A stretch of DNA of 64,000 nt from positions 128,359 to 192,358 of the forward strand of contig JAIYAU010000025.1 in NCBI GenBank assembly GCA_027488865.1, read 5' to 3'. Shown piece by piece: positions 24,770 through 64,000 of this stretch. Below the pieces are notes generated by a model, which did not search any database, had not been told where the DNA came from, and was given only the letters and a program-made list of their open reading frames with translations. Source of the stretch: Cytophagaceae bacterium (lineage in GTDB: Bacteria > Bacteroidota > Bacteroidia > Cytophagales > UBA9547). The first letter of the stretch is position 1. Every line of letters starts with the position of its first letter. A program made the translations under genes and the position numbers.

Positions 24770-24791
24770 TTAGCTAATTTTAAGTTGTTCA

Positions 24792-26501: not shown

Positions 26502-26557
26502 TCGTTCAAGCTTTAATAAGTTCTAGAAATTTTTAAAATTATGTTTCTGAATATTTT

Positions 26558-43959: not shown

Positions 43960-43967
43960 TGGGGTGC

Positions 43968-44753: not shown

Positions 44754-44839
44754 TTTGTGTAAATTTTTAAAATGTATAATTAATCTAGGACTATAAAAGC
44801 TGTTAGATTAAAATAAAAAGTTGTAAATTCTGATAATTG

Positions 44840-45220: not shown

Positions 45221-45261
45221 TTGATGGCAAAACTAGCCTAGAAAATTAATAAAACAAAATA

Positions 45262-47818: not shown

Positions 47819-48008
47819 TGTAGAATTGAATTAATTGTAGCAATTTTAAGCTTAAATAACGAATATTTAAAATGAATCGGAAGATTTTGGGATTGAAAAA
47901 TAAAATAATCTTTACCAAATATTATAAACATCTGATAAATTGATACTTACAATAATGTCAGGACTTTATTCCCTAATCCAATATTAAGTTTTCATTATTT
48001 ACAAAAGA

Positions 48009-48037
48009 CCTGTTAGGTTTAAATAAATCCTGACAGG
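48009..48037 (-). terminator. hairpin downstream of the LRR gene
   Basis: CCTGTTAGG / CCTGACAGG (8 of 9 bp) with T-rich flanks on both strands. Confidence 0.4.
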
Positions 48038-48058
48038 CATTTTTATTTGCAGGGAGGG

Positions 48059-49570
48059 TTAATAGTATGTAATTGCACAATTTGGATGCGTCTTTTTATA
48101 ACCTGCAGCTTCACCTTTTGAAATATTTGTATGGTACATTTTGAACTCGGAAATGTAAGAATACTTTTTTACTGGGTCTAAAGACGAAATTTCTGTACCC
48201 GCTATATTTAGTTCTCTTACCACATTAAAATTTTTAATTGGCGACAAGTCTTTTACTAGCGTGTGTGACAATGACAACTTGGTAATATATCCCATTTTAG
48301 AAATAGGCTCAAGGGTGGTAATTGGGTTAAAATCAATGTATAAAAAGGCGATTTTATAATTATTACTAATGGGTGCCAAGTTAGTTATCTTATTGTTAAA
48401 TATATCCAACCTCACTAAGTCAATCATATTGCGGAGAGGGTCCAAGCTTTCTACTTGGTTTTTACCAAATCTTAAATCTGTTATTTTGATTAAATCCTTT
48501 ACGGCGTTAACATTAGTAATCTCATTTAAGCTACAATTAAATTTTTCCATATTTACAAGCCCCTTCACAGAATCAATAGTCTTTAATAAATTTTCAACAC
48601 ATTCAAAATCTGTAAGTTTAACCAAATTTTGCACTGCATCTATATTGGTAAGTTCGTTTGAATTAACATATAACTTTCTTAAACTTTTTAAATTTTTTAT
48701 TGGCTCCAGATCTCTAACTTTGGTTTTATTAATATTTAGTTCACCCATAAACTTGAGGTTAGCAATTGGCGCCAAGGAAGAAACCGCAGTGTTGGAAAGA
48801 TCAAGTTTTCGTAGTTCAGTAATCTTTTCTAGTGGTGAAATATCCGAAATATTGGTTCCTGCCAAATTAAGCTCAAATATATAGGGTAGGTTTTTAAGGT
48901 CATTTTCTGAAGGTAACTCAGCCATGTTATTCTTTTTGATAAAGATTTCTTTCCACTGCGGCGTAAGGGTGACCCACCAAGCCGTATATTCGGGCAAAGG
49001 CAAAAATTGATTTTCACCTTGTTTACTTATCGAATAAATCTGAGGATTTTTTATTTGGTTTAATTCTTTATCAAACCTGACAAAAAATGTTAATTGAACT
49101 GTTCGTTCTTTTACAATTGTATCAATTTTAATTAGTGAATCAACTTGTTGATAACGATAGGTTTTATTGACAATACTTTTAAGAACTGTAATTTTAAAAT
49201 CATAAGTATTTCTCATGAAGTTAAGCTCTGGCTTACTTACTGTGGTTATGTCACACTTTATCACCGTATTTTTTATTTCTTCACGATATTTTTTAATATA
49301 GTCTTTAATAGGTAGATATCCCGTTCCTATACTGTCCATATCATTAAATGTGGGGACATCTATAGTATAAAAATCTGGCAAAAGTGTTACCATTCCCGAC
49401 TTTTTTAATGCTGGTGCAGCGGCGGAGTCCGATAATAAGTTAAGGCAGTTGGTGTAATTTTTAAGGATTCTAGTGGCCTCAATCTTGGCACTATTAGTAA
49501 GATCTTGAGCACTTAATACCAAGAAACAACTAAAAGATAGTATAAAAAATATTTTGCTTATATTGTTCAT
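48059..49570 (-). CDS. secreted leucine-rich-repeat (internalin-like) protein
   Basis: Signal peptide. The C-terminal ~300 aa are ~22-residue LRRs (L..L..L.L..N.I.DI.PL). Confidence 0.85.
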   Translation of the reverse strand: MNNISKIFFILSFSCFLVLSAQDLTNSAKIEATRILKNYTNCLNLLSDSAAAPALKKSGMVTLLPDFYTIDVPTFNDMDSIGTGYLPIKDYIKKYREEIKNTVIKCDITTVSKPELNFMRNTYDFKITVLKSIVNKTYRYQQVDSLIKIDTIVKERTVQLTFFVRFDKELNQIKNPQIYSISKQGENQFLPLPEYTAWWVTLTPQWKEIFIKKNNMAELPSENDLKNLPYIFELNLAGTNISDISPLEKITELRKLDLSNTAVSSLAPIANLKFMGELNINKTKVRDLEPIKNLKSLRKLYVNSNELTNIDAVQNLVKLTDFECVENLLKTIDSVKGLVNMEKFNCSLNEITNVNAVKDLIKITDLRFGKNQVESLDPLRNMIDLVRLDIFNNKITNLAPISNNYKIAFLYIDFNPITTLEPISKMGYITKLSLSHTLVKDLSPIKNFNVVRELNIAGTEISSLDPVKKYSYISEFKMYHTNISKGEAAGYKKTHPNCAITYY

Positions 49571-49590
49571 ATAAATACGATTAACGACAA

Positions 49591-49614
49591 AAGCCTTCTT
49601 AAAAAAGAAGGCTT
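49591..49614 (-). terminator. hairpin between the DUF1987 gene and the LRR gene
   Basis: AAGCCTTCTT-aaaa-AAGAAGGCTT, a perfect 10-bp stem with a weak T-tract on the minus strand. Confidence 0.4.
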
Positions 49615-49638
49615 AAAATATAATATTATAAGAACAGA

Positions 49639-50013
49639 CTAATAAGTTCTAAATTCAAAAGGCACTTCAACCAGCTCAGAAAATTCTTCACCAGCTTCTT
49701 GCATGTCTTCGTCATCATCTCTATGGAACCATAGAATTCTAACTTCCATACCTGCCTCTTTGCAGTTTTCTAATTTAGTTAATACATCCAATATCAACTT
49801 AGAAGATGCTGTATTAAAATACTCTAACTTAAATTCGAAATCAACGCTTTTAATTCCTGAAGTTTTTAAACCCTCAAGCCAATTGAGAACAGGCTTGTAA
49901 AATTCGGCTGAATCTTCTGGCAATGACCTTCCTGATATTTCATATATACCAGAATCTGCATTTAACATTATTTTAGGTGTATCTTCAGTACCTTCTAAAA
50001 ATATTTTGTCCAT
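49639..50013 (-). CDS. DUF1987 (SiaC-like) partner-switch protein
   Basis: MDKIFLEGTEDTPKIMLNADSGIYEISGRSLPEDSAEFYKPVLNWL is the DUF1987 N-terminal signature. Confidence 0.8.
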   Translation of the reverse strand: MDKIFLEGTEDTPKIMLNADSGIYEISGRSLPEDSAEFYKPVLNWLEGLKTSGIKSVDFEFKLEYFNTASSKLILDVLTKLENCKEAGMEVRILWFHRDDDEDMQEAGEEFSELVEVPFEFRTY

Positions 50014-50045
50014 GAGTGAAAAAGAGTTTTATGTGTTGAGTATTA

Positions 50046-50618
50046 TTACAGCAAGGCCTTTTCTCTAGAAATTTTTGTTTTCAAGGAGAAGAACGTGTAG
50101 TTGTCATCAATTGGTTCAAAGGAGAATTCCAGTTTTTGACCTGATTTTCTGGCCATATCCACAAAACCCAATCCAGCACCACCTTTATCGGAAATACTTC
50201 CTGTAGTAATAATTTCTTTGTAAAGTGCCTTAAGACCATCTTTATCCAAACTGTTAATTTTCTCTAGTTTAGATTCCAAATTAGGCACAAATTCATTCGA
50301 CATGGGATTGCCAGAAATAATGATATACTCATTAAACTCTAACCCTATCATGAATACGGCACCAGTGCGCAAATCACTAAATGAAAACTGTGTATCTTCT
50401 GTATGTTTACAAATGTTTTGGAGACATTCTACCATCACATTAAAAACTTTTCTTTTGATACTTTCCTCTTCACCAAAAGATTCCAGATTTCTTTCTGCCA
50501 TAGAAAGTACCGATTTGGTAATTTCTTGGGTAAACTCACCTTCATAAACTAAAATGATTTTTCTTTCAATCATTAGTTTGTGAAGGTCGAAAATGTAACG
50601 CATGTCTTGCTTGCTCAT
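50046..50618 (-). CDS. SiaB-like protein kinase (GHKL/anti-sigma-kinase fold)
   Basis: 190 aa. ILVYEGEFTQEITKSVL... with a C-terminal GGAGLGFVDMARKSG ATP-lid-like motif. It lies between the PP2C and DUF1987 genes, as in sia loci. Confidence 0.7.
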   Translation of the reverse strand: MSKQDMRYIFDLHKLMIERKIILVYEGEFTQEITKSVLSMAERNLESFGEEESIKRKVFNVMVECLQNICKHTEDTQFSFSDLRTGAVFMIGLEFNEYIIISGNPMSNEFVPNLESKLEKINSLDKDGLKALYKEIITTGSISDKGGAGLGFVDMARKSGQKLEFSFEPIDDNYTFFSLKTKISREKALL

Positions 50619-50684
50619 ACAGTAAAAATTAAAGGCTACACTATGGTACTTACTATGTTTTATTAAAATTAAAAAACCTATTTA

Positions 50685-53600
50685 CTAAAATTTAATACCT
50701 ATTAAAAGTACGTCATCAGTTTGTTTTGTACCAAACTTCCAATCTTCAAATAATTTGTCAAAATTGGCATTCATTTGATCCATTGGTGTGTTTGGATTTT
50801 CATTTATTAGATTACGTATTCTAGCGGGAGAAAGTTTTCTATTTTCTGGCCCGCCAAATTGATCAGGGTATCCATCAGAACAGAAATATATTGAGTCTCC
50901 TAAGTTCAATTTCACTTTATGCGTAACGAAGTTAGTTTGATTCCTATAAATACCTCCCCCTATCGGGAATTTGTCACCTTTAAACTCAAGAAATTCACCC
51001 CCTTTAATAGCAAATAACGGCCTATGCGCACCTGAATATTCCACCTCATTTGTTTCGGTATTTATCTTCACAAAGGCTATATCCATGCCATCTTTGGTTT
51101 CAGAACCTTCCACATCTTGGCGCAAGGTTTGTGTTACACCTCGATCTAGCGCATCCAATATTTCACCAGTGGTTTTATATTTTCCACTATTAACAACATC
51201 ATTCAGGATAAAATAACCTATCAAAGACAATAGCGCACCTGGCACTCCATGACCCGTACAATCTACTGCGGCAATATAAATAAATTTATCAATTTTCATA
51301 AACCAAGGAAAATCACCACTCACCACATCTTTCGCTTTATAGAGAATAAAGGATTGTGGCAAATATTTATTTATGACTGAATTATCAGGCAATATTGCCT
51401 TTTGAATTCTTTGAGCATAGTTGATACTTTCGGTAATTTTTTTGTTTTTCGTTTGTATTTCTACTTCCGCTTGTTTACGTTCTGTTATATCACTTGATAC
51501 CAATAAAATAGACTCTAAAGTACTATTTTCACCAAATTCAGGAATCGCATTTACAGACATTACTTTGAGACCTTCCGCCGTTGGAAAATTCATTTCTCGG
51601 TTTATTTTCTCCTGTTCGTTTATTACTGTTTGAATAATATTTTCCCAATCTTTGACCACCCCTTGGTTAAGCTCTGTTTCTTGTAGGAACTTTTGGTTAA
51701 AATCACTATGAGGTTTGCCAGTAAGTTTTTCAATAACCGGGTTTACATAATAAAACTTACCTTTTGTATTAATTCTGCAAATAAGATCTGGCGAATTTTC
51801 AGAAAGTGACTGCATTTGACTTCGCATACGACTCTCTTTTTCCGCCAGCTTGCGCACGGTTATATCCCTTGAATTGATTACTATGCCACCAATTGATTCG
51901 TCTTTAATAAGATTTTTGGCAGTGGCTTCCATCCATATTTCTTCCCCGTTTTTCTTACGATATATGTATTCTAGAGTAGCGGTATTAGATACATGCGCTG
52001 CAACTCCTTCAAGCATTTTAGCAAAATCATCTTGATAATCGATGTTAACTTTATCCTCAAAATCCTTCCACATGAGATCTTCTTGCTCGTAACCTGCTAT
52101 GCTATGAATAGATGGACTTACATAAGAGATGTATCCCTTATCATCACAGATGTAAATCACTTCTTGAGAATTTTCTAGTAGTACGTGAATTTTCTTTTGT
52201 GACTTACTTACTTCGTTAATTTGCTCTTCTAGTTTTAGATTAGTTCTTTTGAGTTCTTCCTGTGTTGCTTGCATTTCCTCAGCATTTTGCTGCAACATCA
52301 TCGATTGTTCTTTTAACTCACCAGACATTTTTTGTGATGCATCTAACAGTTTTCTTGTTCGGTCGTTTACTTGAACGTTAAAAATAGAGCGTGCGATTAT
52401 TTCACTAATCTCTCTAATCAACAAGATTTGTTGTTGGCTAAATTTATAGATTGAAGCAAATTCTATAGCACCATATACATTTTCGTTGGTAATCAACGGC
52501 ATAATCAAGATAGATTGTGGACGCTTATCTCCTAACAACCCTGACTTAATAGAAACGTAATCTTTAGGAATTTCAGTACGGTGTATTAAATCTCGTTCAA
52601 TAACAGCTTGACCCACTAGACCTTCGCCAATTTTAAAACTTTTGCTTAAGTACTTTTTTCTATTGTAAGCAAAGGCATTTTGAAGTTGTAGAAACTTTTG
52701 ACCTGATTTATCATCTTCCTCTATGATATAAAAAGCACCTTGAACGGCATCAACTTTTTTACATAAATATTGGATTAATTTATCCCCAAGTTCTTCTAAG
52801 TTGTTGTATGTGTTTAAAATAGTGCTTACATCGGCTATGGATGAAACAATTAAATTTTGTTCTTCATCTTTAGCTGCAGCTACTTTTAGGCTACGCCTCA
52901 TTTCTAACAGTGCTTGGCCAAGTGTATCGCTTTGGCTCAAAGGCACAAAATCCGCATCAAGCTCTCCTTTACCTATATTGTTGGCAAACAACGTGGTTTT
53001 CTTTAGTCCTGAAATGAGCTTTCTGATGGCCTCCTGAATATCGCCGATTTCATCATCCATCTTTTTCATAGAAAATTCTGGCAACTCCCCTCTACTCATT
53101 TGCACTAAAAAATCTTTGATTTGTTTAATTGATCCCACTACCGAACGAGACATATAAACTGAAACAAATATGCCAGAAAGTATCAATATGAAACCCAATA
53201 CAATAACACAAACCCTTATGTATTCGGATCGCTTGAGAAGTTCCTGCTCCAGATGCCTTTTAGTTTGATTGATGGTGTTGGAACTGGTTTTAAGTTTTTC
53301 AATTAATTCGGTGTAGTTTTGAGCATATTCGCTGTAGTAGCTAATTGCTAATGAGGCGCGACCAGATGAATCCAAAAGGTTTAAGTCTCCTTTATCCTTA
53401 ATTTTTTTAGTAATCTTTTCAAAATCTGCTAATGACGAATTAATATTTTCACGTATTTCATCGTTAGTTAACTGATTTTGAAGAGTAAGAAGATTATTTT
53501 TAACTAAGGTAAATTCAACATCATTAATCTTAGCAAGATTAGATGCAGCATTTACGTCACTGGAATTGGTAAAAAGCTTGGTGAGATTTTTTTCTGATTT

Positions 53601-53780
53601 GAACAAAAGTTCATTAAAATCATTAATTCCTTCTAAAGACGGATCAATAACGGTGTGTATTTCAGACAAAGTTTGTCTGTTTTTATTAAGTGCAACAATA
53701 CTTAAGGTGGCGATGGTAACGAAGAACACAATTATAACCGCAAACCCTAGAAAAATCTTTTGTGCTATCCCAAATTTCAT
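50685..53780 (-). CDS. membrane sensor: 4-helix-bundle-like periplasmic region, HAMP, GAF, three PAS, PP2C/SpoIIE phosphatase (SiaA-like)
   Basis: Two TM segments flank a ~165-aa helical domain. HAMP is followed by GAF, a coiled coil, PAS repeats and a C-terminal SpoIIE pattern (GDFPWF ... DCTGHGVPGA ... SDGYPDQFGG ... DDVLLIGIKF). Confidence 0.9.
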   Translation of the reverse strand: MKFGIAQKIFLGFAVIIVFFVTIATLSIVALNKNRQTLSEIHTVIDPSLEGINDFNELLFKSEKNLTKLFTNSSDVNAASNLAKINDVEFTLVKNNLLTLQNQLTNDEIRENINSSLADFEKITKKIKDKGDLNLLDSSGRASLAISYYSEYAQNYTELIEKLKTSSNTINQTKRHLEQELLKRSEYIRVCVIVLGFILILSGIFVSVYMSRSVVGSIKQIKDFLVQMSRGELPEFSMKKMDDEIGDIQEAIRKLISGLKKTTLFANNIGKGELDADFVPLSQSDTLGQALLEMRRSLKVAAAKDEEQNLIVSSIADVSTILNTYNNLEELGDKLIQYLCKKVDAVQGAFYIIEEDDKSGQKFLQLQNAFAYNRKKYLSKSFKIGEGLVGQAVIERDLIHRTEIPKDYVSIKSGLLGDKRPQSILIMPLITNENVYGAIEFASIYKFSQQQILLIREISEIIARSIFNVQVNDRTRKLLDASQKMSGELKEQSMMLQQNAEEMQATQEELKRTNLKLEEQINEVSKSQKKIHVLLENSQEVIYICDDKGYISYVSPSIHSIAGYEQEDLMWKDFEDKVNIDYQDDFAKMLEGVAAHVSNTATLEYIYRKKNGEEIWMEATAKNLIKDESIGGIVINSRDITVRKLAEKESRMRSQMQSLSENSPDLICRINTKGKFYYVNPVIEKLTGKPHSDFNQKFLQETELNQGVVKDWENIIQTVINEQEKINREMNFPTAEGLKVMSVNAIPEFGENSTLESILLVSSDITERKQAEVEIQTKNKKITESINYAQRIQKAILPDNSVINKYLPQSFILYKAKDVVSGDFPWFMKIDKFIYIAAVDCTGHGVPGALLSLIGYFILNDVVNSGKYKTTGEILDALDRGVTQTLRQDVEGSETKDGMDIAFVKINTETNEVEYSGAHRPLFAIKGGEFLEFKGDKFPIGGGIYRNQTNFVTHKVKLNLGDSIYFCSDGYPDQFGGPENRKLSPARIRNLINENPNTPMDQMNANFDKLFEDWKFGTKQTDDVLLIGIKF

Positions 53781-53826
53781 AAAATTTTACTTTAAAAATT
53801 GTGATTACTATTTTTTGCTAATATGT

Positions 53827-54600
53827 TTAACTTAAAATGGCTTCAAGAACCACCTTGGTGCTTGTTACTATTTCTTCTATTTCTTTATCACTATATTCTT
53901 TAAAACTAGCTAATTCGGCGATAGCTACCGTTTGTTCATTTACAAATAATGGAACAATGATCAAATTAGAAGGAGATAACTCGCCCAACCCAGAAAGAAC
54001 CTTCATGTAACCAGCAGGTACTTCTTTAAGATATACAAATTGTCCCGTTTTAGCTACCTGTCCTGCTATTCCCTCGCCTACATGAATGGTGTCATGTGTA
54101 TTTTCAGTAATTACAAAGGCATAATGTACATTTAATCGCAATATGTTCTCTTCTTTAAGATATGTGACTGCTTGTGCAAACTCATATTTCGTACATAACA
54201 ATGACAGTATTTTCTCACTTCTTCTTAAGGCATCAGTTTCCTTTTCTTTTAGGGACCAGATATCCTCTTTAAACTTTTCCTGTTGCGCTAAATTAAACTG
54301 ATCCGCTTCCTCAGCTATATTGTTGATAGATTGGTTTACCGTTTCAGGTGTTGATTCCACCGTAATATATTTAATCACCTCGTTCTTATAGGTGATAAAA
54401 TAGGCAACTAGAAGTATTCCTAATACATTAGAAGCAATGATTATTGATTGAAATAAATTCCAATTTTTAATTCCAAATGGAAGCGCATTCACTTTAATGA
54501 TTCCATTAGAAGGTTCAATAAGCAATGTTATTAATGCCGAAAATGTGGCAAAAATCACAAAACTGATATTGAGGATATTAATAACTTTTTTATTTTTCAT
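53827..54600 (-). CDS. membrane-anchored GAF-domain protein
   Basis: Two N-terminal TM helices and a C-terminal GAF-like region (IHVGEGIAGQVAKTGQFVYL ... IIVPLFVNEQTVAIAELAS). Confidence 0.7.
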   Translation of the reverse strand: MKNKKVINILNISFVIFATFSALITLLIEPSNGIIKVNALPFGIKNWNLFQSIIIASNVLGILLVAYFITYKNEVIKYITVESTPETVNQSINNIAEEADQFNLAQQEKFKEDIWSLKEKETDALRRSEKILSLLCTKYEFAQAVTYLKEENILRLNVHYAFVITENTHDTIHVGEGIAGQVAKTGQFVYLKEVPAGYMKVLSGLGELSPSNLIIVPLFVNEQTVAIAELASFKEYSDKEIEEIVTSTKVVLEAILS

Positions 54601-54623
54601 TGGTGTTCAAATTTTCGTTTCAA

Positions 54624-55208
54624 TTAATCACAAAATGAATTTAAAAACTGTATTATTTCACTTGTTTTAAGTATTTGATCAATGGTAGTTATTTCTAAAG
54701 CTGCCTCAGGCATGGTAGTAATTGTACATTCTTTAGGATCTTGTACGATGGTATAACCTCCTCGATTTTTCAAACGTTTCATACCAATTGCTCCATCTTT
54801 ATTTGCTCCAGATAGTAGTATTCCTATTATCTTTTGTTTGTATACATAAGAGGCCGTATCAATAGTAATATCAATAGCTGGTCTTGAGTTATTTACCATT
54901 TCTTCTGTCGAAAGAGAAAAATAATTACCCAATTCGACACACAAGTGATAATTTGCTGGTGCCAGATAAACCATCCCTTTTTTAATAGCCTCTTTATCAG
55001 CAGGCTCAATAATTGGTTTTTTTGATTTAATCGACAACGCTTCCACAAATCCGTTTCGCACATGTTTAAGCCTATGCAAAGCCATGATGATAGGCAAATC
55101 AAATTTAGGGTTAATTTCACTCAATATTTTTGAAATCACCTGAAACGAACCAGCCGAACCACCTATTACTACCGCTTTATAAATCTCTTTATTGTCTATA
55201 ATGGCCAT
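54624..55208 (-). CDS. cheB: CheB-type protein-glutamate methylesterase, catalytic domain only (no receiver)
   Basis: VVIGGSAGSFQ...PIIMALHR...GANKDGAIG matches the CheB Ser/His/Asp catalytic-domain motifs. At 194 aa there is no room for a REC domain. Confidence 0.8.
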   Translation of the reverse strand: MAIIDNKEIYKAVVIGGSAGSFQVISKILSEINPKFDLPIIMALHRLKHVRNGFVEALSIKSKKPIIEPADKEAIKKGMVYLAPANYHLCVELGNYFSLSTEEMVNNSRPAIDITIDTASYVYKQKIIGILLSGANKDGAIGMKRLKNRGGYTIVQDPKECTITTMPEAALEITTIDQILKTSEIIQFLNSFCD

Positions 55209-55224
55209 CTTGATAAATGAGCTA

Positions 55225-56055
55225 TTACTCTCTTACTCTTTTATAAATTTTTTCTTCATTGTTAACAGTAATAAACTTGTTGGCGATATCACACCAAACT
55301 AGTGTTTCTTTACTTCCAATAATAAGATAGCCATAATTAAATAAACTAGTATGAAACACCTTAAAAACTTCATTTTGCAAAGTTTGATTAAAATAAATCA
55401 TCACATTTCTGCAAAGAATAATGTCAAACTTTGAAAACCAACCAGTTTTAACCAAGTCGTGTTCTCTGAACGTAACGTTTCTAAGTAAATTTTGCTCCAT
55501 TATTACGTTTTGTCCGTCTATTTTATAGTAGTCTGAAAGTTTACCTTTACCTTCAAAACGCACATAATTTTTATCATTTACCTCTTGTGTATTTTTAAGA
55601 AGATATTTGCCTTCTTTGGCTTTTTTAATAATCACATGATCAATATCAGTGGCAAAGATTTTTACTTTGTCCAACCATCCATTTTCTTCAAGAAGCACAC
55701 ACATAGAAAAAACCTCTTCTCCAGACGAGCAGCCTGCATGCCAAATTTTAACCTCATTCTGCATTTGAAAAAGGTTAGGAAAGATTTGATCTCTTAAGAC
55801 CCTCCATAAGGACGGATCACGAAACATTTCAGTAACGTTTACTGTAATTTCGGATAGTAATGTTTTAGAAAATTCAGGCTCTTTAGTAAGTTTTTGGATG
55901 ATTTGATCAGCATTCGTAAACTTATAAAGTTCCATTATTCTAATAATCCTTCTTTTGAATGACGAAAGTGCGTAGTTTGTGAAATCATAAGAAAACTCAT
56001 CTTTAATAAAAGTGGCGAGTTTTTTGATTTCTGCTAACTCAATATCTTCAACCAT
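55225..56055 (-). CDS. cheR: CheR-type protein-glutamate O-methyltransferase
   Basis: FKRRIIRIM...TEMFRDPSLW...IWHAGCSSGEEVFS...FDIILCRNVMIYF. Confidence 0.85.
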   Translation of the reverse strand: MVEDIELAEIKKLATFIKDEFSYDFTNYALSSFKRRIIRIMELYKFTNADQIIQKLTKEPEFSKTLLSEITVNVTEMFRDPSLWRVLRDQIFPNLFQMQNEVKIWHAGCSSGEEVFSMCVLLEENGWLDKVKIFATDIDHVIIKKAKEGKYLLKNTQEVNDKNYVRFEGKGKLSDYYKIDGQNVIMEQNLLRNVTFREHDLVKTGWFSKFDIILCRNVMIYFNQTLQNEVFKVFHTSLFNYGYLIIGSKETLVWCDIANKFITVNNEEKIYKRVRE

Positions 56056-56254
56056 GCGAACGTATAATTATATAAGTGGGTATCTTTAATCAAAAATCAC
56101 CGATTCAAAAATTAAACTTTATTGAATTAAAAAAAACATTCAACAAAGCCACCGGCCAACCTAAACGAGTATACTGAAATTCACAACAACAAGTTTTAAT
56201 ATTTACTAAAAAAATATAACTAAAAATTAAAATTTAGACACAAATCCTCCAATT

Positions 56255-59200
56255 CTAGTTACCAAACTTAGGCATAGATTCAAGCATTACAAATGCGCCC
56301 CAATAAATGGCCTCAGGATGTTGTTCTTTAACTTTTGTTTTTGCGTAATTAAACGATTGGTTTTTGTTGGCTGAGACTAACCAGCTTTCATAAAAATATT
56401 TCATAAATTTTTGAGTAACTTCATCATTTACCTTAAACAATGTCATCACTACTGCTTTTGCGCCAGCAATAAAAAGAGAGCGTTGTAACCCGTATACTCC
56501 CTCTCCATTAACCACTTCGCCCCTTCCTGTTTCACATGCACTCAACACTACTAGCTCTGTGCCGTCTAGCTTGAGTGTGGCGGCCTCCATTGCTGTGAGT
56601 ATTCCTTTTTGGGCATTCACATTTAAACCAGCATCAAACAGATCTCCAGATCCCTTAAGCATAAGGCCAGAATTAAGAAGTGGATTTGCCATAAAATTAT
56701 TGTCATCTTCTGGTGTATTTTCTTTAAAAAAACCATGAGTGGCAATATGGAAAACTTTTGGACTATTCATTTTAACCAAGGTGTCTTCCGTAACTGATTT
56801 GCCCACTAGCAGTTGTATATTAAGACTTGATTTTAAAATAACAGAAATTTCATTTATTTCTTGTTCGGCACCTGGTAAAGAAGGCACAGATCTATTGGCT
56901 GCCTGTTCATTGATTACATAAAATTCAGGATTGCCACAAATTATATAATTGTCATTTTGTGGTTGAGACTTTCCATTCGTCTTTTTTATCAATGGTGGCT
57001 GGTTAAGAATATCTTTACTATTGGAGATAAATCTAAACTTATATTGATCAAAAAGACATTTATTGGTAGGAGTGGTAAAAGTTTCAGGGTTCATTTGGCT
57101 ATAAACGCCATCTGGAGAGAAATAAATAGTCTTAATTCCCTTGAGCTGATTATCAATGGGCTGCCAAAAATTCTTATAAGTAAGATTGTCATTCAACTTT
57201 TTAATGATTGCATTTCTGTAATATTTAAAATAACGCTTTTCTAAATGAGATGCATTGGGAATGATAACACACAAAGGATTTGATCGTGTTTGTTGGGTTA
57301 CTACCAAAGCTGCATAAAGTGCAGAATCGAGAAATTTATGGTTAAAGTATCTAAAATGTACCATTTCTACTACAGCTTCATCCGGGGTAAGTACATCTCG
57401 AATATTTTGCCAATCAATTTTCCTTTTATTGGCTTCTGTGTCAAATAGCTGTGAACGAGTATTTATTGACTTTTCTAATTGGTCAATTTGATTCTCTAAT
57501 AGTGGCAAATCAATGCCTTGTTCTGCCAATTGTGTTTTACTCAGAGCGTAAGCAGTATTCATTACCTCTTTCTTTTCAACCCAACTATCATATAAACTAA
57601 TTAATAGGGTATCGCCACTTGTAAAAATCTTTTGTCTTACCTTGGTGTCTGATGCCAATAAAATGGCCTTAGTAGAAATGACGTTATTAAATACCTTGCT
57701 AATTTCACTTGGTTTTTCTGTGATAAATTGGCTACATATTAAAAAATTAAAAAACTCAAACTCATCTTTTATGGAATTCCAGTAGTTACCCTTTTGACCA
57801 AAACTCATACTTGGAAATAACTTATCCACAATTTTTAGATAAGTAGGAATGATCTCTTCCATAACATCTAAAGAATTGTTGTATTGTTTTAACATAAATA
57901 ATGAGCGTGCTTCGTGTCCTTTGCTTTTGTTGTACAAAGGATGGTTAATTGAAAAAATTGATTTATACTGGTCTGACGACTCTTTAAAGTATTTTAGTGC
58001 GTTTTTATAATCTTTTGATCCATAATACATTTTACCACTCAAGAAGGCAAGTTCGGCGCTTACGGATGACTCCCCTTTCACATTTTGATAATAGGCAACA
58101 GCCTTACTTAAAAGATTTTTTGCTTCTACAAAATTTTCAACGGTTATTAAAAACTCTGCATTTCTAATAAGGACATTAATATAAATTGGGTTATTTTCAC
58201 CAAGGCTTGTTCGAGCTAGTTTAATGGCGTTGTCATACAAAGCCATCACTTCTTTCACATCAAACTTTGAAGATCTCACCTTAATTTTTGCCTTCAAAAG
58301 TAGGATATCAATATTATTGAAATTGTTAGTTCCATATACCGTATTTTGGATAGTTGTAGCCACATTAATATCGTCTAGCGCTTTCTTATAGTCAGCAATG
58401 GCCTCGTAGTATTGTGCGGCCATAATTTTAGCACGTGCATAGGTTACGCCTTTTTCACCAAATCCTTTTGCTGAAATTTCTAATGCAGTGGTAACGTACT
58501 TGTCGGCTTGAGGGTAATTACCTTTAATGATATCTAATTGAGCCATTAAATGAAACAACTCAAGAGCAATTGATGAATATGGTACCTTAGTTTTTACTAT
58601 TTGGTAGGCGTTTTGAAGCTGTTTTTGTGCTTTTAAAAAATTCCCACTTTGTAAATAAATCGCACCCAACGCAATATTATTTTCTACCTCCAATTCTAGA
58701 TTTTTGTGCGTTAAACGCGCTTTGCTGAAACTTACCATTTCAGATTTTAATTTATTTTCTTTATCATACTGCCCAGTAATACCATAAATCTCACGCAGAA
58801 GTAACGTGCATTTTAACTTTTCAGGGTCTTGATTGGAAAGATTTTTTTGTTCCAACTCATAGGTAGCTAAAATCTCGTTTGCTTGAGAAATTTTGCCCTT
58901 TAGCAATAAATAATATGCTGATTTTAGGTTGTAATAAATTTTTAGTCCATTTTCATTCGGGTGAATATTAGTAGCTAAATTGGCATGTATAACTGCAGAA
59001 TCCAACAAGCCTACCTTGAAATAATAATCCGCTAAAAACGACTGCAAAAATGCCATTTCAAAACTTACAGGATGTAATTGTAACAATTGGTTTGGCAAAT
59101 CTTTTTCAACTACTTGTCTAAGTGAATCGGCAATACCCACGTATTTTAAAACTAAAACTCCCTTATAAGCTGCCCATTTATCCAAGTAAGGGGAGTTACT

Positions 59201-60418
59201 GGCTAAAAAAGGATTTTGACTATGAATAATATCATTAATAAATCCAACAGCTTTTATTGGGTTTAGTTGCTCTTGACTCCATTTAGCCCCCATTGCCAAT
59301 GCTGATAATCTTGAAGGGTGATTTTTGGGCAAATGACCATATTCTTTAAGAAATGCTTCTAAGTCATAAATACCTTGGCTTGGGTCCTCCCAATAGAATT
59401 GTTTAACTGCTAGAGCCAAATTATAATAGGGCTGAAAAGGCTCAAAAAGTCCAGAATTGCTATTGGCCAAAATTTGTAATTTCCTTAAAAGCGCATCGGT
59501 TTGGACAGGTTGATTATTATAAATGTGGCAAACAATGTTTTGGAATAAAATTTCGATTTTTGTTGGATTTTTATCAAAACTACTGCAAGCTGCAAATGCC
59601 TCAGTATAAGCATTTATCGCTTTGTCGATGTTACTTTCGTTTTGAAACATCTGTCCTTCTTGTTTACAAACTCTTGCATAATGGGTTGAAGGGCGCCCTA
59701 AGTTTTCCTTAATGAGTTTTTTTGATTTTGAAATATTGATGGCTGCGTTGTCATCATCTCCTTGTCCTAAATAAATTTCATTTTTAAGTATTAATAACTC
59801 TGCAAAAACCGAAGTTTTAAATAATAGATCATTTTTATTAATGGCACTTAACTTAAATTCGGCATTAGAGGTTTTAGTGGAGATTAAAGAATTAAAATAA
59901 TTTTCTAGGGGCAAAACCATTTCTAATGCTTGATTGAGCCAACCAGTTTTGGCCTTTATGGTTGCGAGTTGTAATTGTAACAAATTGTTTTCCAGCTCGG
60001 TATTACTTTTATCTTGAGCCTTACCGTTATAAATAAGGGCTTCATTAAAATTACCGATGTACAAATAATAATCTGCTAGTGCATGATAAATATCAAATCT
60101 TTCGGTGACTGGAAAGACAGTCCCTAACAAGTTTACAAATGCCTGTTCAATGGCTTTAGCTTTTTCAAAATCTGCATTATCGTAATGAGCCTTAGCTAAT
60201 AGGCAATAAGTTTTAAAATAAAACCTATTTGGAGTAGAGGCATTTTTCTTATTGTTTATAGCAACAGTAGCTGATGCTATTACTTCATCAATATCACCTT
60301 CGTTATATTTGTAAAACAAGTATCCATATTTAGACTCTAGTCGTTCCGCAGTAGCAGGAGAGCCAAGAAAAAAACATACACTTAAAAATATGGCAAAAAT
60401 ATAAGTTTTAAGATTCAT
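56255..60418 (-). CDS. secreted TPR-repeat protein with C-terminal CHAT (caspase-like) protease domain
   Basis: Signal peptide, ~900 aa of TPR-like repeats, and a CHAT core with FHIATHGFF (His) and LVVLSACETGRGE (Cys). Confidence 0.9.
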   Translation of the reverse strand: MNLKTYIFAIFLSVCFFLGSPATAERLESKYGYLFYKYNEGDIDEVIASATVAINNKKNASTPNRFYFKTYCLLAKAHYDNADFEKAKAIEQAFVNLLGTVFPVTERFDIYHALADYYLYIGNFNEALIYNGKAQDKSNTELENNLLQLQLATIKAKTGWLNQALEMVLPLENYFNSLISTKTSNAEFKLSAINKNDLLFKTSVFAELLILKNEIYLGQGDDDNAAINISKSKKLIKENLGRPSTHYARVCKQEGQMFQNESNIDKAINAYTEAFAACSSFDKNPTKIEILFQNIVCHIYNNQPVQTDALLRKLQILANSNSGLFEPFQPYYNLALAVKQFYWEDPSQGIYDLEAFLKEYGHLPKNHPSRLSALAMGAKWSQEQLNPIKAVGFINDIIHSQNPFLASNSPYLDKWAAYKGVLVLKYVGIADSLRQVVEKDLPNQLLQLHPVSFEMAFLQSFLADYYFKVGLLDSAVIHANLATNIHPNENGLKIYYNLKSAYYLLLKGKISQANEILATYELEQKNLSNQDPEKLKCTLLLREIYGITGQYDKENKLKSEMVSFSKARLTHKNLELEVENNIALGAIYLQSGNFLKAQKQLQNAYQIVKTKVPYSSIALELFHLMAQLDIIKGNYPQADKYVTTALEISAKGFGEKGVTYARAKIMAAQYYEAIADYKKALDDINVATTIQNTVYGTNNFNNIDILLLKAKIKVRSSKFDVKEVMALYDNAIKLARTSLGENNPIYINVLIRNAEFLITVENFVEAKNLLSKAVAYYQNVKGESSVSAELAFLSGKMYYGSKDYKNALKYFKESSDQYKSIFSINHPLYNKSKGHEARSLFMLKQYNNSLDVMEEIIPTYLKIVDKLFPSMSFGQKGNYWNSIKDEFEFFNFLICSQFITEKPSEISKVFNNVISTKAILLASDTKVRQKIFTSGDTLLISLYDSWVEKKEVMNTAYALSKTQLAEQGIDLPLLENQIDQLEKSINTRSQLFDTEANKRKIDWQNIRDVLTPDEAVVEMVHFRYFNHKFLDSALYAALVVTQQTRSNPLCVIIPNASHLEKRYFKYYRNAIIKKLNDNLTYKNFWQPIDNQLKGIKTIYFSPDGVYSQMNPETFTTPTNKCLFDQYKFRFISNSKDILNQPPLIKKTNGKSQPQNDNYIICGNPEFYVINEQAANRSVPSLPGAEQEINEISVILKSSLNIQLLVGKSVTEDTLVKMNSPKVFHIATHGFFKENTPEDDNNFMANPLLNSGLMLKGSGDLFDAGLNVNAQKGILTAMEAATLKLDGTELVVLSACETGRGEVVNGEGVYGLQRSLFIAGAKAVVMTLFKVNDEVTQKFMKYFYESWLVSANKNQSFNYAKTKVKEQHPEAIYWGAFVMLESMPKFGN

Positions 60419-60489
60419 CGATGAAAACAGATAATCTGTTAGGGTTTTATACTAAGAGCTACAAATGAACTTTCAGTGTTAATATAATA

Positions 60490-60530
60490 ATAAAAAAATC
60501 ATGATTCTTATGGTTTAAAGAACCATGATT
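60490..60530 (-). terminator. rho-independent terminator after osmC
   Basis: AATCATGATTCTT / AAGAACCATGATT (12 of 13 bp). On the minus strand it is followed by TTTTTTTATTATT. Confidence 0.6.
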
Positions 60531-60557
60531 ATTAAGCACTTTAACTTAATTAAAAAA

Positions 60558-60968
60558 TCAAGCTAATGATGCTTCTACTGATATTTTGGTATTTAAAAGT
60601 TTGGAAATAGGGCAATTGGCCTCTGCATCTGCCACTAGTTCGTCAAATTTAGCTTGATCAAGACCTGGCACAACTGCTTGCACAGTAATATGAGAAGAGG
60701 TAATTACACCATTGTCCAAAGTAATAACACAAGAAGAATCAATTGAAGTTGGTACAAATCCAGCTCCACCTATGTTAAAACTAAGTTTCATTGAGAAACA
60801 TCCTGCATGTGCGGCAGCTACTAGTTCTTCAGGATTAGTTCCGATGCCTTCTTCAAAACGTGAATTAAATGAATATTGTGTTTTGTTTAAGACAGTACTT
60901 TGTGTAGATAATACACCGTGGCCTTCTTTGCCAGAACCTATCCAATTTGCAGTTGCGTTCCTTTTCAT
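60558..60968 (-). CDS. osmC: OsmC family peroxiredoxin
   Basis: NPEELVAAAHAGCFSM ... AEANCPISK: the two conserved Cys motifs of OsmC. Confidence 0.9.
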   Translation of the reverse strand: MKRNATANWIGSGKEGHGVLSTQSTVLNKTQYSFNSRFEEGIGTNPEELVAAAHAGCFSMKLSFNIGGAGFVPTSIDSSCVITLDNGVITSSHITVQAVVPGLDQAKFDELVADAEANCPISKLLNTKISVEASLA

Positions 60969-61184
60969 GTTTTAAAAATTTACTATTCTAAAAAGATTTA
61001 TTTTGTATTTTGTCAAAAATAGACAACCTAGTTGGCACAAGCAAACAAAATAAATGAAATATTTTAACACAAGTTTTGCCGCACAATATAAAAAAATACC
61101 CAAACTCCGAGTTATTTCATTAGGCCCACTTTCTTTGAAGCCAATTTATACTTAAACTCTTCAATCAAAAATACAAAAATTAAA

Positions 61185-61222
61185 CCTAATAGGGAGTTCC
61201 TTGATGGACAAACCCTATTAGG
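61185..61222 (-). terminator. rho-independent terminator after the VWA gene
   Basis: CCTAATAGGG / CCCTATTAGG, a 10-bp stem with T-runs on both sides. Confidence 0.6.
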
Positions 61223-61236
61223 CTTTTTCAATTATC

Positions 61237-62991
61237 TTATCTGCGGGTTGAATTTAAATCATTCAACAAACTTGCTGTTTTTACCAATTTAATAAACTTT
61301 GTCCTATAACCTTCATTGTCAGCTCCTACAGCACTTTTGGCTAACTCTATCACACCTTCATAAGAAAGATCGCCTTTGTATTTGGAATCGCGTAGTAACA
61401 TACCAAATGAAGCCACAGCCGCTGAAAATTTAAAATTTTCGGAAGAAGAAGATAAACTTACTTGCTTGTCCAACAATGGATGTACAATTAACTTACTTAT
61501 TGTATCTTGTGGTGACTTGTATCTGAACTTGACGGTCAAAATTTCATTAGAAACTTTGTTAGTATTTTTAGCCACAGTTTGTTGATATTTAAGCGCATCA
61601 ACTGATCCACTTACGTCTTCTTTGCTATCTGCAGGGATAATTTCATAAAGTGCTGTAACTGTATGTCCGGCCCCCAACTCACCTGCATCTTTTTTATCAT
61701 CATTAAAATCCTCTTTTTTGAGCATTCTGTTTTCGTATCCCACTAAACGGTAAGCCTTTACTTTGGCAGGGTTAAACTCAACTTGTATTTTAACATCCTT
61801 TGCTATGGTATTCAAGGTGCCGTCAATATCAGTAACAAATACTTTCTTAGCTTCATTGATGTTATCGATGTAAAAATAATTACCATTGCCATTGTCTGCA
61901 ATACTTTCCATTTTAGAATCTTTATAGTTACCCATTCCAAAGCCAAGAACAGAAATAAAAATGTCATCTTTTCTTTTGTCTTCGATTAAACGGGTCATTT
62001 CTGCATCTGATGAAGCACCGATGTTAAAGTCGCCGTCGGTGGCCAAAATTACCCTGTTGTGACCATTCTTAATTAGATTTTCCTTGGCAATCTTATAAGC
62101 AAGCTCGATTCCTTCACCGCCTGCGGTAGAGCCACCAGCTTGTAGATTATCCAAAGCATCAAGAATTTTGTTTTTTTCGCTACCAGAAGTAGCAGGAAGC
62201 ACCAAACCAGCCGCACCAGCATAAACCACCATGGCAATTTTATCTTGGGGTCTTAATTTTTTTACTAACAAACCAAATGATTGTTTAAGTAATGGTAGCT
62301 TGTTTTTATCTTCCATAGAGCCAGATACATCAATTAAGAAAACCAAGTTAATAGGAGCCATTTCTACAAAGTCATGTTTAACTCCTTGCAAACCAATATG
62401 AATAAGTTTTCTATTTTTATTCCAGGGACATTCGGATATTTCTGTATTGATAGAAAAAGGATGTTTTCCTGTGGGTTGAGGATATTGATAATCAAAGTAA
62501 TTGATAAATTCTTCAATTCTTACAGCATCTATTGGCGGCAAGGTGTTATTATCCAAATATCGCCTACAGTTGGTATAGCTTGCATTATCTACATCAATGC
62601 TGAAAGTAGACAATGGATTATTATTAACAGCTAAATAATCATTTTCTTTAATGATATTATATCCTTCTGTATTATAATCCTTTACGATTACCTCCTCATC
62701 ATTTGAGTTATTAAAAGTGGAGGAAATAGATTTTTTGCTTTCAGGTCCATTTTGGATTTGACTAGGATATTGTTGTTCTCCCATAGACTCATCCTTTTTA
62801 TATTTAGATAATCCGCTTGGAGAATTTACTTCCTCAGGAGCTACTTGATCGGTAACCTCATTTGATTCAGATTTGGTCTCATAACCAAAAGTATAGGTGT
62901 TACAAGTCTTACATCCTTTTTTGCAAGAAAACATTGTAAACGAAAGGACCAACAATAAACCAACCAATAAGGTTGAAAATAGATTTTTCAT
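61237..62991 (-). CDS. von Willebrand factor A domain lipoprotein (YfbK-like, VWA + DUF3520-type C-terminus)
   Basis: Lipobox FSCKK and a MIDAS motif in VFLIDVSGSMEDKNKL. Confidence 0.85.
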   Translation of the reverse strand: MKNLFSTLLVGLLLVLSFTMFSCKKGCKTCNTYTFGYETKSESNEVTDQVAPEEVNSPSGLSKYKKDESMGEQQYPSQIQNGPESKKSISSTFNNSNDEEVIVKDYNTEGYNIIKENDYLAVNNNPLSTFSIDVDNASYTNCRRYLDNNTLPPIDAVRIEEFINYFDYQYPQPTGKHPFSINTEISECPWNKNRKLIHIGLQGVKHDFVEMAPINLVFLIDVSGSMEDKNKLPLLKQSFGLLVKKLRPQDKIAMVVYAGAAGLVLPATSGSEKNKILDALDNLQAGGSTAGGEGIELAYKIAKENLIKNGHNRVILATDGDFNIGASSDAEMTRLIEDKRKDDIFISVLGFGMGNYKDSKMESIADNGNGNYFYIDNINEAKKVFVTDIDGTLNTIAKDVKIQVEFNPAKVKAYRLVGYENRMLKKEDFNDDKKDAGELGAGHTVTALYEIIPADSKEDVSGSVDALKYQQTVAKNTNKVSNEILTVKFRYKSPQDTISKLIVHPLLDKQVSLSSSSENFKFSAAVASFGMLLRDSKYKGDLSYEGVIELAKSAVGADNEGYRTKFIKLVKTASLLNDLNSTRR

Positions 62992-63156
62992 AAGAAAGAG
63001 ATTTAGTGTGAAAAGAAATTAAAGTTCAATTTCCTTTAAGATGTAAGCGTCTAAAAAATTCCATAAAAAATTAAAAATATTTTCAATCTTTTAAATCCAA
63101 TGAATGAAATTATTAATCATTTCGCAATTTTATTCGGTTAAATATCAAATAAAATG

Positions 63157-63164
63157 TAATTTTG
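63157..63164 (+). promoter_or_regulatory. -7 box TAATTTTG upstream of the 7TM-DISM gene
   Basis: Exact TAnnTTTG, 29 nt before ATG 63194. Confidence 0.35.
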
Positions 63165-63193
63165 CAAGAAAGTATATCATTATTTACTGCTTC

Positions 63194-64000
63194 ATGCGTT
63201 ACACCTATTTATATGTTTTTCTGGGAGTATTGTGCCTTAGCCTCAATACCTTTGCACGCCAAAAGAATATCTTGGAAGTAGAAGATTATCAAAATGATTT
63301 TTTTATTACCAATGACCACATAGAAGTATATGAAGATTTTGAGAAAAGGCTTTCACTAAGCGATGTGCTTTTGCCCGAAAATCAAAAATATTTTAAAACA
63401 CAAAACACCAGTGACAACTTCCCCTACCTGCTTACCAATCAGGCAGTTTATTGGATCAAGGTTACGGTTAAACTCAAAAAACCAACCACAAAACGCTGGG
63501 TATTAGAAAACCAAGATTTACATATAGATCAATTTGAATTTTATAAAATAGATGGTGGCCACTACATAAAACAGGATGCAGGATATGCACTTAATTTTGG
63601 CGTACGCGATTATGAGCATAAGAATTTTGTATTTGATTTACCACTTGACACATTTCCGCAAACATTTTATATAAAAGCTAGCGCCAAAAACAAGTATGTC
63701 TTAAAATTAAAGATAAGAACAGGTAGTTTTTTCACTTCATATGCTCTTAAGGAATACTTTGCTCTAGGTATTTTTTATGGCATCATCCTTATCATGGCAG
63801 CTTATAATTTATTTGTATATTTTTCGGTAAAAGAGAAGGTATATTTATACTACGTAGCGTATGCGCTTAGTTGTTGTTTGATTGCACTTTCTGAGGATGG
63901 CCTCGGTTTTCAATTTATTTGGCCTCAGTTTTATCAACTGAATCACCTTTTGGCCATGTTTTCGCCGTTACTTTTGCTATTAAGCTTTTCGTTATATTCC
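63194..64000 (+). CDS. 7TM-DISM sensor protein, N-terminal part (7TMR-DISMED2 extracellular domain plus first TM helices); runs off window end
   Basis: The frame is open from ATG 63194 to the window end. It reads MRYTYLYVFLGVLCLSLNTFA..., AVYWIKVTV...WVLENQDLHIDQFEFY (DISMED2 pattern), then FALGIFYGIILIMAAYNLFVYF TM helices. Confidence 0.8.
   Translation, partial: MRYTYLYVFLGVLCLSLNTFARQKNILEVEDYQNDFFITNDHIEVYEDFEKRLSLSDVLLPENQKYFKTQNTSDNFPYLLTNQAVYWIKVTVKLKKPTTKRWVLENQDLHIDQFEFYKIDGGHYIKQDAGYALNFGVRDYEHKNFVFDLPLDTFPQTFYIKASAKNKYVLKLKIRTGSFFTSYALKEYFALGIFYGIILIMAAYNLFVYFSVKEKVYLYYVAYALSCCLIALSEDGLGFQFIWPQFYQLNHLLAMFSPLLLLLSFSLYS

Follow-up and report, generated by a model that had tools for sequence, protein, structure and literature searches.

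A Cytophagales gene cassette places CheR and CheB with a Sia-type sensor phosphatase and suggests methylation-based adaptation outside chemotaxis

Results

CheR and CheB are encoded with a sensor phosphatase and a Sia-type switch

We analyzed a 64,000-nucleotide stretch of DNA from a Cytophagaceae bacterium (GenBank assembly GCA_027488865.1, contig JAIYAU010000025.1, positions 128,359 to 192,358), hereafter the window, in which genes for a CheR methyltransferase and a CheB methylesterase lie beside a gene for a sensor phosphatase. The genome has a G+C content of 33%, and the genes are co-directional on the minus strand. They are cheR (56055..55225; 276 amino acids (aa); Pfam CheR_N and CheR), a cheB without a receiver (REC) domain (55208..54624; 194 aa; Pfam CheB_methylest alone), a gene for a small GAF protein with two transmembrane (TM) segments (54600..53827; 257 aa; Pfam GAF_2), the sensor gene (53780..50685; 1031 aa; Pfam GAF_2, two PAS and SpoIIE/PP2C), a SiaB-family kinase gene (50618..50046; 190 aa; Pfam DUF6272) and siaC (50013..49639; 124 aa; Pfam SiaC/DUF1987). 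The gaps between them are, in the same order, 16, 23, 46, 66 and 32 nt. A gene for a TPR-CHAT protein ends 199 nt upstream of cheR, and a gene for a leucine-rich repeat (LRR) protein begins 68 nt downstream of siaC. The coordinates, sizes and gaps given for these open reading frames (ORFs) in an earlier note, made from the sequence of the window alone, were correct.

Directly after the siaC stop codon, an intrinsic-terminator-like hairpin (49591..49614, minus strand) combines a 10-bp stem with a U-rich tail; its folding energy is -13.4 kcal/mol (z = -3.5), and 0 of 200 shuffled sequences folded equally well. Because the gaps are tight and this terminator follows siaC, the genes from cheR to siaC are best read as a single transcription unit, as the earlier note had proposed from the short gaps, and the gene order and strand in relatives (see below) agree with this reading. 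A second hairpin lies between the OsmC and CHAT genes, and no terminator-like site was found in the CHAT-cheR gap. In most relatives cheR requires a promoter of its own, since the gene upstream of it differs or lies on the other strand, and in the window the 199-bp AT-rich gap upstream of cheR (56056..56254, minus strand) is presumed to be the promoter region. No exact copy of the Bacteroidetes -7 motif TAnnTTTG occurs in any operon gap, so the cheR promoter was not placed. Similarly, a sigma-70 promoter scan gave no signal (52 sites, with 57 expected from shuffled sequence), and Rfam had no match in 47500..64000.

CheR and CheB retain their catalytic motifs

CheR matches the solved structure PDB 5FTW (E = 5e-33) and also aligns to 1AF7. 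The motifs FRD, CSSGEE, ATDID and CRNVMIYF are all retained, and conservation of the S-adenosylmethionine (SAM) and catalytic motifs extends over 66 orthologues. In CheB, the Pfam CheB_methylest domain spans residues 13-188 and no Response_reg match was found, so that the protein has no receiver domain for phosphorylation by CheA; its orthologues are 186-197 aa long. CheB aligns to the solved catalytic domains 3SFT, 1CHD and 1A2O, and residues S18, H45 and D138 coincide with the GxSxGG, H and DG motifs of the solved CheB domains. Motif positions of both proteins are at least 90% conserved among 66-70 orthologues. Both enzymes therefore look active, as a protein-glutamate O-methyltransferase and a methylesterase/deamidase catalytic domain; the degeneration of catalytic residues that the earlier note had raised as a possibility is not seen.

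The downstream genes encode a SiaB-SiaC pair

The DUF6272 protein passes the cut-off of the NCBIfam SiaB_fam_kinase model (175.8 bits, cut-off 85) and matches chain A of PDB 6KKO, the Pseudomonas aeruginosa SiaB (E = 1e-13). The DUF1987 protein scores 133.6 bits against Pfam SiaC and matches chain C of the same structure (E = 4e-17); its score against the NCBIfam equivalog, 88.9, is below the cut-off of 150. In P. aeruginosa, Thr68 of SiaC is phosphorylated by SiaB and dephosphorylated by SiaA (PMC8457831), and T68 is invariant in 74 orthologues of the SiaC described here. That the DUF6272-DUF1987 genes are a SiaB-SiaC pair, as the PDB 6KKO and NCBIfam matches indicate, had been overlooked in the earlier note. 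No GGDEF gene, and hence no candidate for the SiaD diguanylate cyclase, was found in the operon or the window.

Two TM segments at the N terminus of the small GAF protein are followed by a variable acidic linker and then, at the C terminus, by a GAF domain that is 28% identical, and thus paralogous, to the GAF domain of the sensor. One ORF of approximately 250-290 aa occupies the position between cheB and the sensor gene in 59 of 67 loci. Comparison of the orthologues revealed neither a conserved linker nor a conserved helix with glutamate pairs, and the protein was rejected on this ground as a methylation substrate, a role for which it had been one of two candidates. Because it is conserved in the cassette yet lacks such a helix, we take its role to be accessory, as a partner of the GAF domain of the sensor.

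The sensor phosphatase contains a conserved helix with heptad-spaced glutamate pairs

The sensor is laid out as a TM segment, a helical periplasmic domain, a second TM segment, a HAMP-like segment, a GAF domain, a signalling coil, two PAS domains and a PP2C (SpoIIE) domain. Its hydrophobic segments lie at approximately residues 8-31 and 188-210. The HAMP match is below threshold (E = 0.007), and Pfam HAMP matches are present in orthologues; the assignment of the periplasmic domain as a 4-helix bundle comes from matches at E = 0.18 to 0.28 and a low-confidence all-helical model. The PP2C metal-binding motifs DCTGHG, DGMD and TDDV are present. The last 267 residues (765-1031) match NCBIfam SiaA with E = 7.5e-51, and the whole protein, with its extra GAF domain, coil and pair of PAS domains, reaches 173 bits where the cut-off is 700. 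Orthologues differ in their input domain, which is a dCache domain of approximately 270 aa in most species, a bare TM hairpin in a third group, and a helical domain of approximately 155 aa in the window and in one relative (locus L004; loci of relatives are numbered in this way throughout). From the HAMP-like segment onward, the sensor is constant.

Within this constant part, the signalling coiled coil between the GAF and PAS domains (52146..52355, minus strand; residues 476-545) stands out. In an alignment of 75 sequences, residues 461-540 have conservation values of 0.85-0.93, equal to those of the PP2C core. The core motif of the coil, QQNAEEMQATQEELKRTN...NEVSKS, occupies residues 497-527 (52200..52292, minus strand), and the linker consensus of the 75 sequences is LLxESQxMSxELxExQEVLRQNAEEMxATQEELxR(S/T)NxxLE(E/D)QIEEVNRTQKRMQLLLEN. 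Two glutamate pairs, E501/E502 and E508/E509, are seven residues apart; E501, E502, M503, T506, E508, E509, L510 and N514 are invariant in all 75 sequences, and A505 in 74. A further pair, E522/E523, is in the same heptad register in most orthologues, and the window carries N522 at the first of these positions. Single-sequence AlphaFold models, with predicted local distance difference test (pLDDT) values of 58 and 41, were used for helix content alone; the model of the sensor is poor overall, and residues 473-527 form one helix that is its sole stretch with a pLDDT above 70.

Methylation sites of methyl-accepting chemotaxis proteins (MCPs) follow the pattern EExxA(S/T). Each glutamate pair of the sensor coil is followed by h-x-(A/R)-(S/T), recalling this pattern, and an MCP-like double-site pattern has a single match in the six-frame translation of the 64 kb, at the core motif of the sensor. 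The helix between the GAF and PAS domains is thus the best-supported candidate substrate of CheR and CheB, at which methylation would occur on the glutamate pairs. The earlier note had listed the coiled coils of this sensor among its possible substrates, and conservation on a par with the PP2C core, together with the heptad-spaced EE pairs, makes this the strongest of its suggestions. Of the two proteins in which it had proposed to look for a heptad methylation consensus, the sensor has MCP-like glutamate pairs in its coil, and the small GAF protein has no conserved helix of this kind. A CheR-tethering pentapeptide, sought on its suggestion at the C termini of the same two proteins, is carried by neither.

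The six-gene cassette is conserved across Cytophagales

Related loci were collected by several routes. CheR homologues of approximately 60% identity were found in Marivirga, Catalinimonas, Persicobacter and many metagenome-assembled genomes (MAGs), and the surroundings of two of these homologues had the same six-gene order. Species-representative genomes were scanned with the GAF-PAS linker of the sensor, which gave at least 507 matches, from which 80 loci were kept; these are annotated as Cytophagales or just as Bacteroidota, except for one MAG labelled Bifidobacteriaceae. A metagenome scan with CheB added 8 loci. Cassette order was assessed by tblastn of the window proteins.

Order and strand of the six genes were identical in each of the 73 distinct loci in which the contig reached far enough upstream, and these loci are drawn from many Cytophagales genera. 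cheR was the first cassette gene in every case, and each of the nine loci without cheR ends at a contig boundary. The order was also kept in the loci found without the motif, via CheR and via CheB. The nearest relatives of the region are uncultured Cytophagales, and cultured carriers of the cassette include Marivirga, Fulvivirga and Chryseolinea. It is also present in complete genomes, among them AP025329, CP159478 and CP032382. The CheR-CheB-GAF-PP2C block, which the earlier note had proposed to follow across relatives, is therefore part of a larger conserved arrangement: gene content, synteny and the conservation of catalytic and motif residues establish the cassette as an order-wide unit of Cytophagales, which we read as a signalling cassette. 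A literature search found no description of it.

Directly after siaC, approximately 70 loci encode a fusion of TerB, ABC_tran and ABC2_membrane domains of approximately 1030 aa (for example, L001 17188-20274). This TerB-ABC transporter is a plausible target of SiaC in place of the SiaD cyclase. The gene is absent from the whole window and also from L017.

The coil recurs in receptors beyond the cassette

When 1.84 billion cluster representatives were searched exhaustively with a 76-aa query (sensor residues 470-545), 103 of them matched, about half being PP2C sensors. The remainder are GAF-coil-PAS(n) proteins with the sequence QEEEMRQNMEELxATQEEM, often in several copies, and the core RQNxEE[ML]xATQEE[ML] recurs in paralogous receptors of 35-40% overall identity. 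In 28 cassette loci, a receptor of 520-800 aa without an output domain is encoded directly upstream of cheR on the same strand (for example, L026 3766-5769 and L042 3379-5721, in addition to 26 other loci). These receptors consist of a helical or Cache sensor, a TM segment, HAMP and GAF domains and a coil reading MRAQEEEMRQNMEELQATQEEM. In two loci (L093 10001-12376 and L098 10001-12379) the output-less receptor lies between two cheR genes, giving the order CheR, receptor, CheR, CheB, GAF, PP2C, SiaB, SiaC, ABC.

Fusions and kinases with similar coils were also observed. In Catalinimonas, approximately 2 kb upstream of the cassette, a CheB-CheR-PAS-HisKA_2-HATPase fusion of 1148 aa (L003 4480-7926) carries about six NEELxx[ST] heptads after its CheR domain. 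At L091 1327-6162, the gene for a 1138-aa hybrid histidine kinase precedes those for CheR (273 aa) and a REC-less CheB (187 aa); by eye, the kinase combines a CHASE3-like helical sensor region at its N terminus with a GAF-like stretch, an acidic coil and the core of a histidine kinase, and its C-terminal stretches look receiver-like. This set resembles the RsbK/RsbM pair of Bacillus cereus with an added esterase.

Two further observations concern sensors of related architecture. In L092 (10001-19255), the gene for a 1647-aa GAF-multi-PAS protein whose coils are repeated precedes genes for a GAF histidine kinase, a REC protein and an RsbY-like REC-GAF-PP2C protein, and no CheR or CheB is encoded near this region. 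The window itself encodes a cytoplasmic GAF-PAS-HisKA-HATPase kinase (33718-35319, minus strand) whose GAF-PAS linker lacks the EE-heptad motif.

The coil is often, but not in every case, associated with CheR and CheB. Because it also occurs in proteins away from these enzymes, it may be a structural linker between GAF and PAS domains. Its distribution fits substrates scattered over the genome, as MCP genes are, and fits a structural linker equally well.

No MCP, CheA or CheW accompanies the cassette

The MCPsignal, CheW and CheA families were absent from the 50 window ORFs scanned against Pfam, four ORFs of 126-196 aa having been left out of the scan. With a loose consensus as the query, no MCP hairpin-like peptide was detected in the window or across 1.5 Mb of related loci, and no CheA or CheW occurred among the called genes of the relatives examined. 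L099, a syntenic relative, encodes a 7TMR-DISM protein, PriA and two proteins without a Pfam family upstream of its vWA-OsmC-CHAT block, and none of them is a Che protein. The statement of the earlier note that MCP, CheA and CheW are missing thus holds for the operon, for the scanned window ORFs and for the region upstream in L099.

Genes flanking the cassette and other features of the window

The TPR-CHAT gene upstream of cheR (60418..56255, minus strand; 1387 aa; Pfam TPR_12 and CHAT) encodes a CHAT domain with E = 2.8e-53, and its translation contains the motifs HIATHG and LSACETG, which we take to be the caspase-like His/Cys catalytic dyad of CHAT. By eye and hydropathy, its N terminus, MNLKTYIFAIFLSVCFFLGSPATA|E, resembles a Sec signal peptide. 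Export had been considered unusual for a CHAT protein, but signal-peptide-like N termini are present in 16 of 18 homologues, so that an exported CHAT is ordinary in this subfamily. Outside the window, a single relative has the gene next to cheR (L099/L100; 71% CHAT identity); this relative also keeps vWA-OsmC upstream and the LRR gene downstream. In L004, in which CheR is 80% identical, opposite-strand genes lie upstream of cheR instead of CHAT.

The LRR gene (49570..48059, minus strand; 503 aa; Pfam LRR_4) encodes a secreted, internalin-like protein. It occupies the place of the TerB-ABC transporter and is kept only in L100. This gene is a separate transcription unit downstream of the terminator. 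It was considered as the SiaC target and rejected, given its signal peptide, its position beyond the terminator and its retention only in the closest relative. Since adjacency to the cassette is confined to the window and its closest relative, both CHAT and LRR are lineage-specific neighbours, and the TPR-CHAT gene does not belong to the cassette. A defence-system reading of CHAT or of the cassette was dropped, as PADLOC gave no match for any of the eight proteins.

Elsewhere in the window, four large co-directional ORFs (22253-28987, minus strand; 383, 448, 569 and 809 aa) match no Pfam family at E <= 1e-3, and a GH3 glycosidase gene (19183-21498) adjoins them. A 970-aa protein (15895-18807, plus strand) has a C-terminal Peptidase_S74 domain as its sole Pfam match; Peptidase_S74 is the intramolecular chaperone of endosialidase and tail-fibre proteins. 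At 42937-46359 (minus strand), an MbnP gene (43968-44753) lies between those for two di-haem CCP/MauG-type peroxidases, an MbnP/MbnH-like arrangement as in copper-acquisition loci. A run of small co-directional genes at 8768-15250 (plus strand) contains repeated families, encoding two cyclic nucleotide (cNMP)-binding regulators, one YCII protein and three proteins of the glyoxalase/bleomycin-resistance fold.

Discussion

A model for adaptation of a sensor phosphatase by helix methylation

We propose, with a probability of roughly 55%, that the six genes form one operon whose CheR and CheB would reset the output of the sensor phosphatase by methylation of its GAF-PAS helix. In this model, the membrane sensor would read an envelope or periplasmic cue through its lineage-variable input domain, and the signal would pass through HAMP and GAF to the long signalling helix, the two PAS domains and the PP2C phosphatase. 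The phosphatase is expected to strip the phosphate from Thr68 of SiaC, and the SiaB-family kinase to restore it. Unphosphorylated SiaC would then bind and regulate its target, in most species probably the neighbouring TerB-ABC transporter, and in this genome a target unlinked to the operon. CheR may methylate, and a constitutively active REC-less CheB may demethylate, E501/E502 and E508/E509. Such modification could reset phosphatase output after a stimulus, providing adaptation without CheA, CheW or an MCP. Because CheB lacks a receiver domain, feedback would have to depend on how accessible the helix is to the two enzymes in each conformation and not on phosphorylation of CheB; conformation-dependent substrate access suffices in principle for MCP adaptation. 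The small membrane GAF protein may act as an accessory partner of the sensor GAF domain. Methylation itself, its site, the direction in which it regulates and the target of SiaC are all inferred.

A broader form of the model is possible, and we offer it only tentatively. The sensor-HAMP-GAF-coil proteins, some of them output-less, may be a new kind of methyl-accepting receptor, marked by RQNxEE[ML]xATQEE[ML] and belonging to a network independent of CheA and CheW. One CheR and one REC-less CheB would serve these receptors, a PP2C/SiaB/SiaC switch would gate the TerB-ABC transporter, and adaptation would proceed purely by conformation-selective methylation.

Several observations weigh against the proposed role of the helix. 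Its methylation is predicted from sequence, and the motif fits the C-terminal half of the MCP methylation consensus and not more of it. The invariance of the motif is partly circular, because the same motif served to choose the 80 genome loci, although L001, L003 and L085/L086, which were found independently of it, carry the same core. In two of the loci seeded by CheB, the coil is partly degenerate (AEIMEATAEEL in L087 and AREMAMTQEQL in L090). Covariation between a degenerate coil and decayed enzymes was sought there and none was found, CheR and CheB being intact in both loci. Moreover, of the 7 GAF-coil-PAS proteins of the kind described above whose genomic surroundings were examined, 5 have no CheR or CheB within 10 kb, and the window has no ABC transporter, so that the output gene is not linked here.

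These points leave room for the helix to be structural and for CheR and CheB to modify another member of the cassette (the GAF protein, SiaC or SiaB) or, elsewhere, the TerB-ABC transporter or the output-less receptor. Both the occurrence of the coil in many proteins that do not adjoin CheR or CheB and its partial degeneration in L087 and L090 favour such an arrangement, and CheR can methylate non-receptor proteins, PhoP being an example (PMC8546571). However, CheR and CheB are retained in the window and in L100, which encode neither the ABC transporter nor an upstream receptor, and therefore the substrate must be the GAF protein, the sensor, SiaB or SiaC; of these, the small GAF protein is without a conserved acidic helix, and heptad-spaced EE pairs occur in the sensor only. 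We consider a substrate other than the sensor rather unlikely. A further alternative is modification that runs mainly one way, with CheB deamidating glutamine or CheR methylating as constitutive maturation, and no adaptation following. RsbM, which has no cognate esterase, is a standing negative regulator (PMC4574943), and at one site L090 carries Q (EQ), a residue also seen in those MCP sites that have to be deamidated. Against this, the two enzymes are strictly co-conserved and their active sites are intact, which argues for opposing, ongoing activities and makes one-way modification improbable.

The remaining alternatives look outside the six genes. Since some Bacteroidetes encode chemoreceptors (PMC7390727), CheR and CheB might serve ordinary MCPs encoded elsewhere and be merely co-located with the Sia-like genes. 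This is highly improbable given an adjacency, order and strand kept in every one of the 73 loci across many genera, a CheB without the receiver domain that links CheB to CheA, and the lack of any MCP-like hairpin in the 1.5 Mb of flanks or of Che genes in the scanned window ORFs. The secreted TPR-CHAT protease might instead be the functional input, processing or sensing an envelope ligand and being co-transcribed with cheR. It is co-directional with cheR across a 199-bp gap free of terminator-like sites, it keeps its place in the relative with 71% identity (L099/L100), and CHAT genes lie approximately 3 kb upstream in Marivirga loci. However, approximately 70 other cassettes, including that of L004, have no CHAT gene upstream of cheR, 28 loci have an output-less receptor in that position, and signal-bearing TPR-CHAT proteins are common in these bacteria, so that an input role for this protease appears very unlikely.

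Significance and comparison with known systems

CheR/CheB adaptation is the textbook example of bacterial sensory memory and is regarded as a property of MCP-CheA-CheW arrays. Here, in an order whose members glide and have no flagella, a strictly conserved cassette joins both enzymes to a sensor phosphatase and a switch based on Thr phosphorylation, which suggests that methylation-based adaptation has been rewired onto a non-chemotaxis pathway. If this is true, reversible glutamate methylation would be a portable adaptation module for other receptor types, the single RsbM precedent would be extended from one-way repression to a writer/eraser pair, and SiaABC-type switches would gain a new input layer and possibly a new output, the ABC transporter. 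The candidate methylation site has been narrowed to four residues.

Compared with canonical MCP adaptation, as in Tar and Tsr of Escherichia coli, the cassette shares both enzyme families with intact active sites. Its candidate sites, like those of MCPs, are glutamate pairs with a seven-residue spacing and with small or hydroxyl residues after them, on a dimeric helix downstream of HAMP. In contrast to the canonical Che pathway, neither an MCP signalling domain nor CheA and CheW were found, and CheB is without a receiver. Lacking these three defining features, the cassette is not a member of that pathway; it also has no C-terminal tethering pentapeptide, and its output would be Ser/Thr dephosphorylation. 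Chemosensory pathways with alternative functions, such as Wsp (PMC3447774), similarly combine CheR/CheB-type adaptation with a non-motility output, but they retain an MCP, CheW and a CheA-type kinase, none of which is in this cassette. The uncharacterized CheB-CheR-PAS-kinase fusions of the L003 type, found in the same bacteria, share MCP-less CheB and CheR beside an acidic heptad coil and PAS. They differ in that sensor and enzymes form one protein, a histidine kinase provides the output, and GAF and Sia modules are lacking.

With SiaABCD of P. aeruginosa (PMC8457831, PMC7647112), the cassette shares a PP2C phosphatase with membrane/HAMP input, a SiaB-family kinase, Thr68 of SiaC and the order A-B-C. 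Here, however, SiaD is missing and a TerB-ABC transporter is the neighbour in most relatives, with none in the window. The sensor adds a GAF domain, a coil and two PAS domains, and CheR, CheB and the GAF protein precede it. Because there is no SiaD and because the sensor and SiaC score below the NCBIfam equivalog cut-offs, the cassette is only partly a SiaABCD system.

The closest precedent for the proposed wiring is RsbK-RsbM-RsbY of B. cereus, in which the CheR-type RsbM methylates the signalling helix of RsbK after its GAF domain and thereby controls a PP2C partner switch (PMC4574943). The earlier note had taken a link between methylation and a Ser/Thr partner switch to be uncharacterized; in view of this precedent, the wiring is not categorically new. 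In both systems, a gene for a CheR-type methyltransferase lies beside that for a non-MCP sensor, which is a likeness of arrangement. RsbK, like the sensor described here, has a helical extracytoplasmic domain, HAMP and GAF followed by a signalling helix. In contrast, RsbK is a hybrid histidine kinase with an inhibitory REC that phosphorylates a separate REC-PP2C protein, RsbY, whereas here PP2C is fused to the sensor. The RsbK/RsbM pathway leads to the RsbW/RsbV-sigma-B switch, and the cassette to SiaB/SiaC (DUF6272/DUF1987); RsbM is an orphan without an esterase, whereas a dedicated REC-less CheB is always present here, together with a membrane GAF protein that RsbK-RsbM-RsbY does not have.

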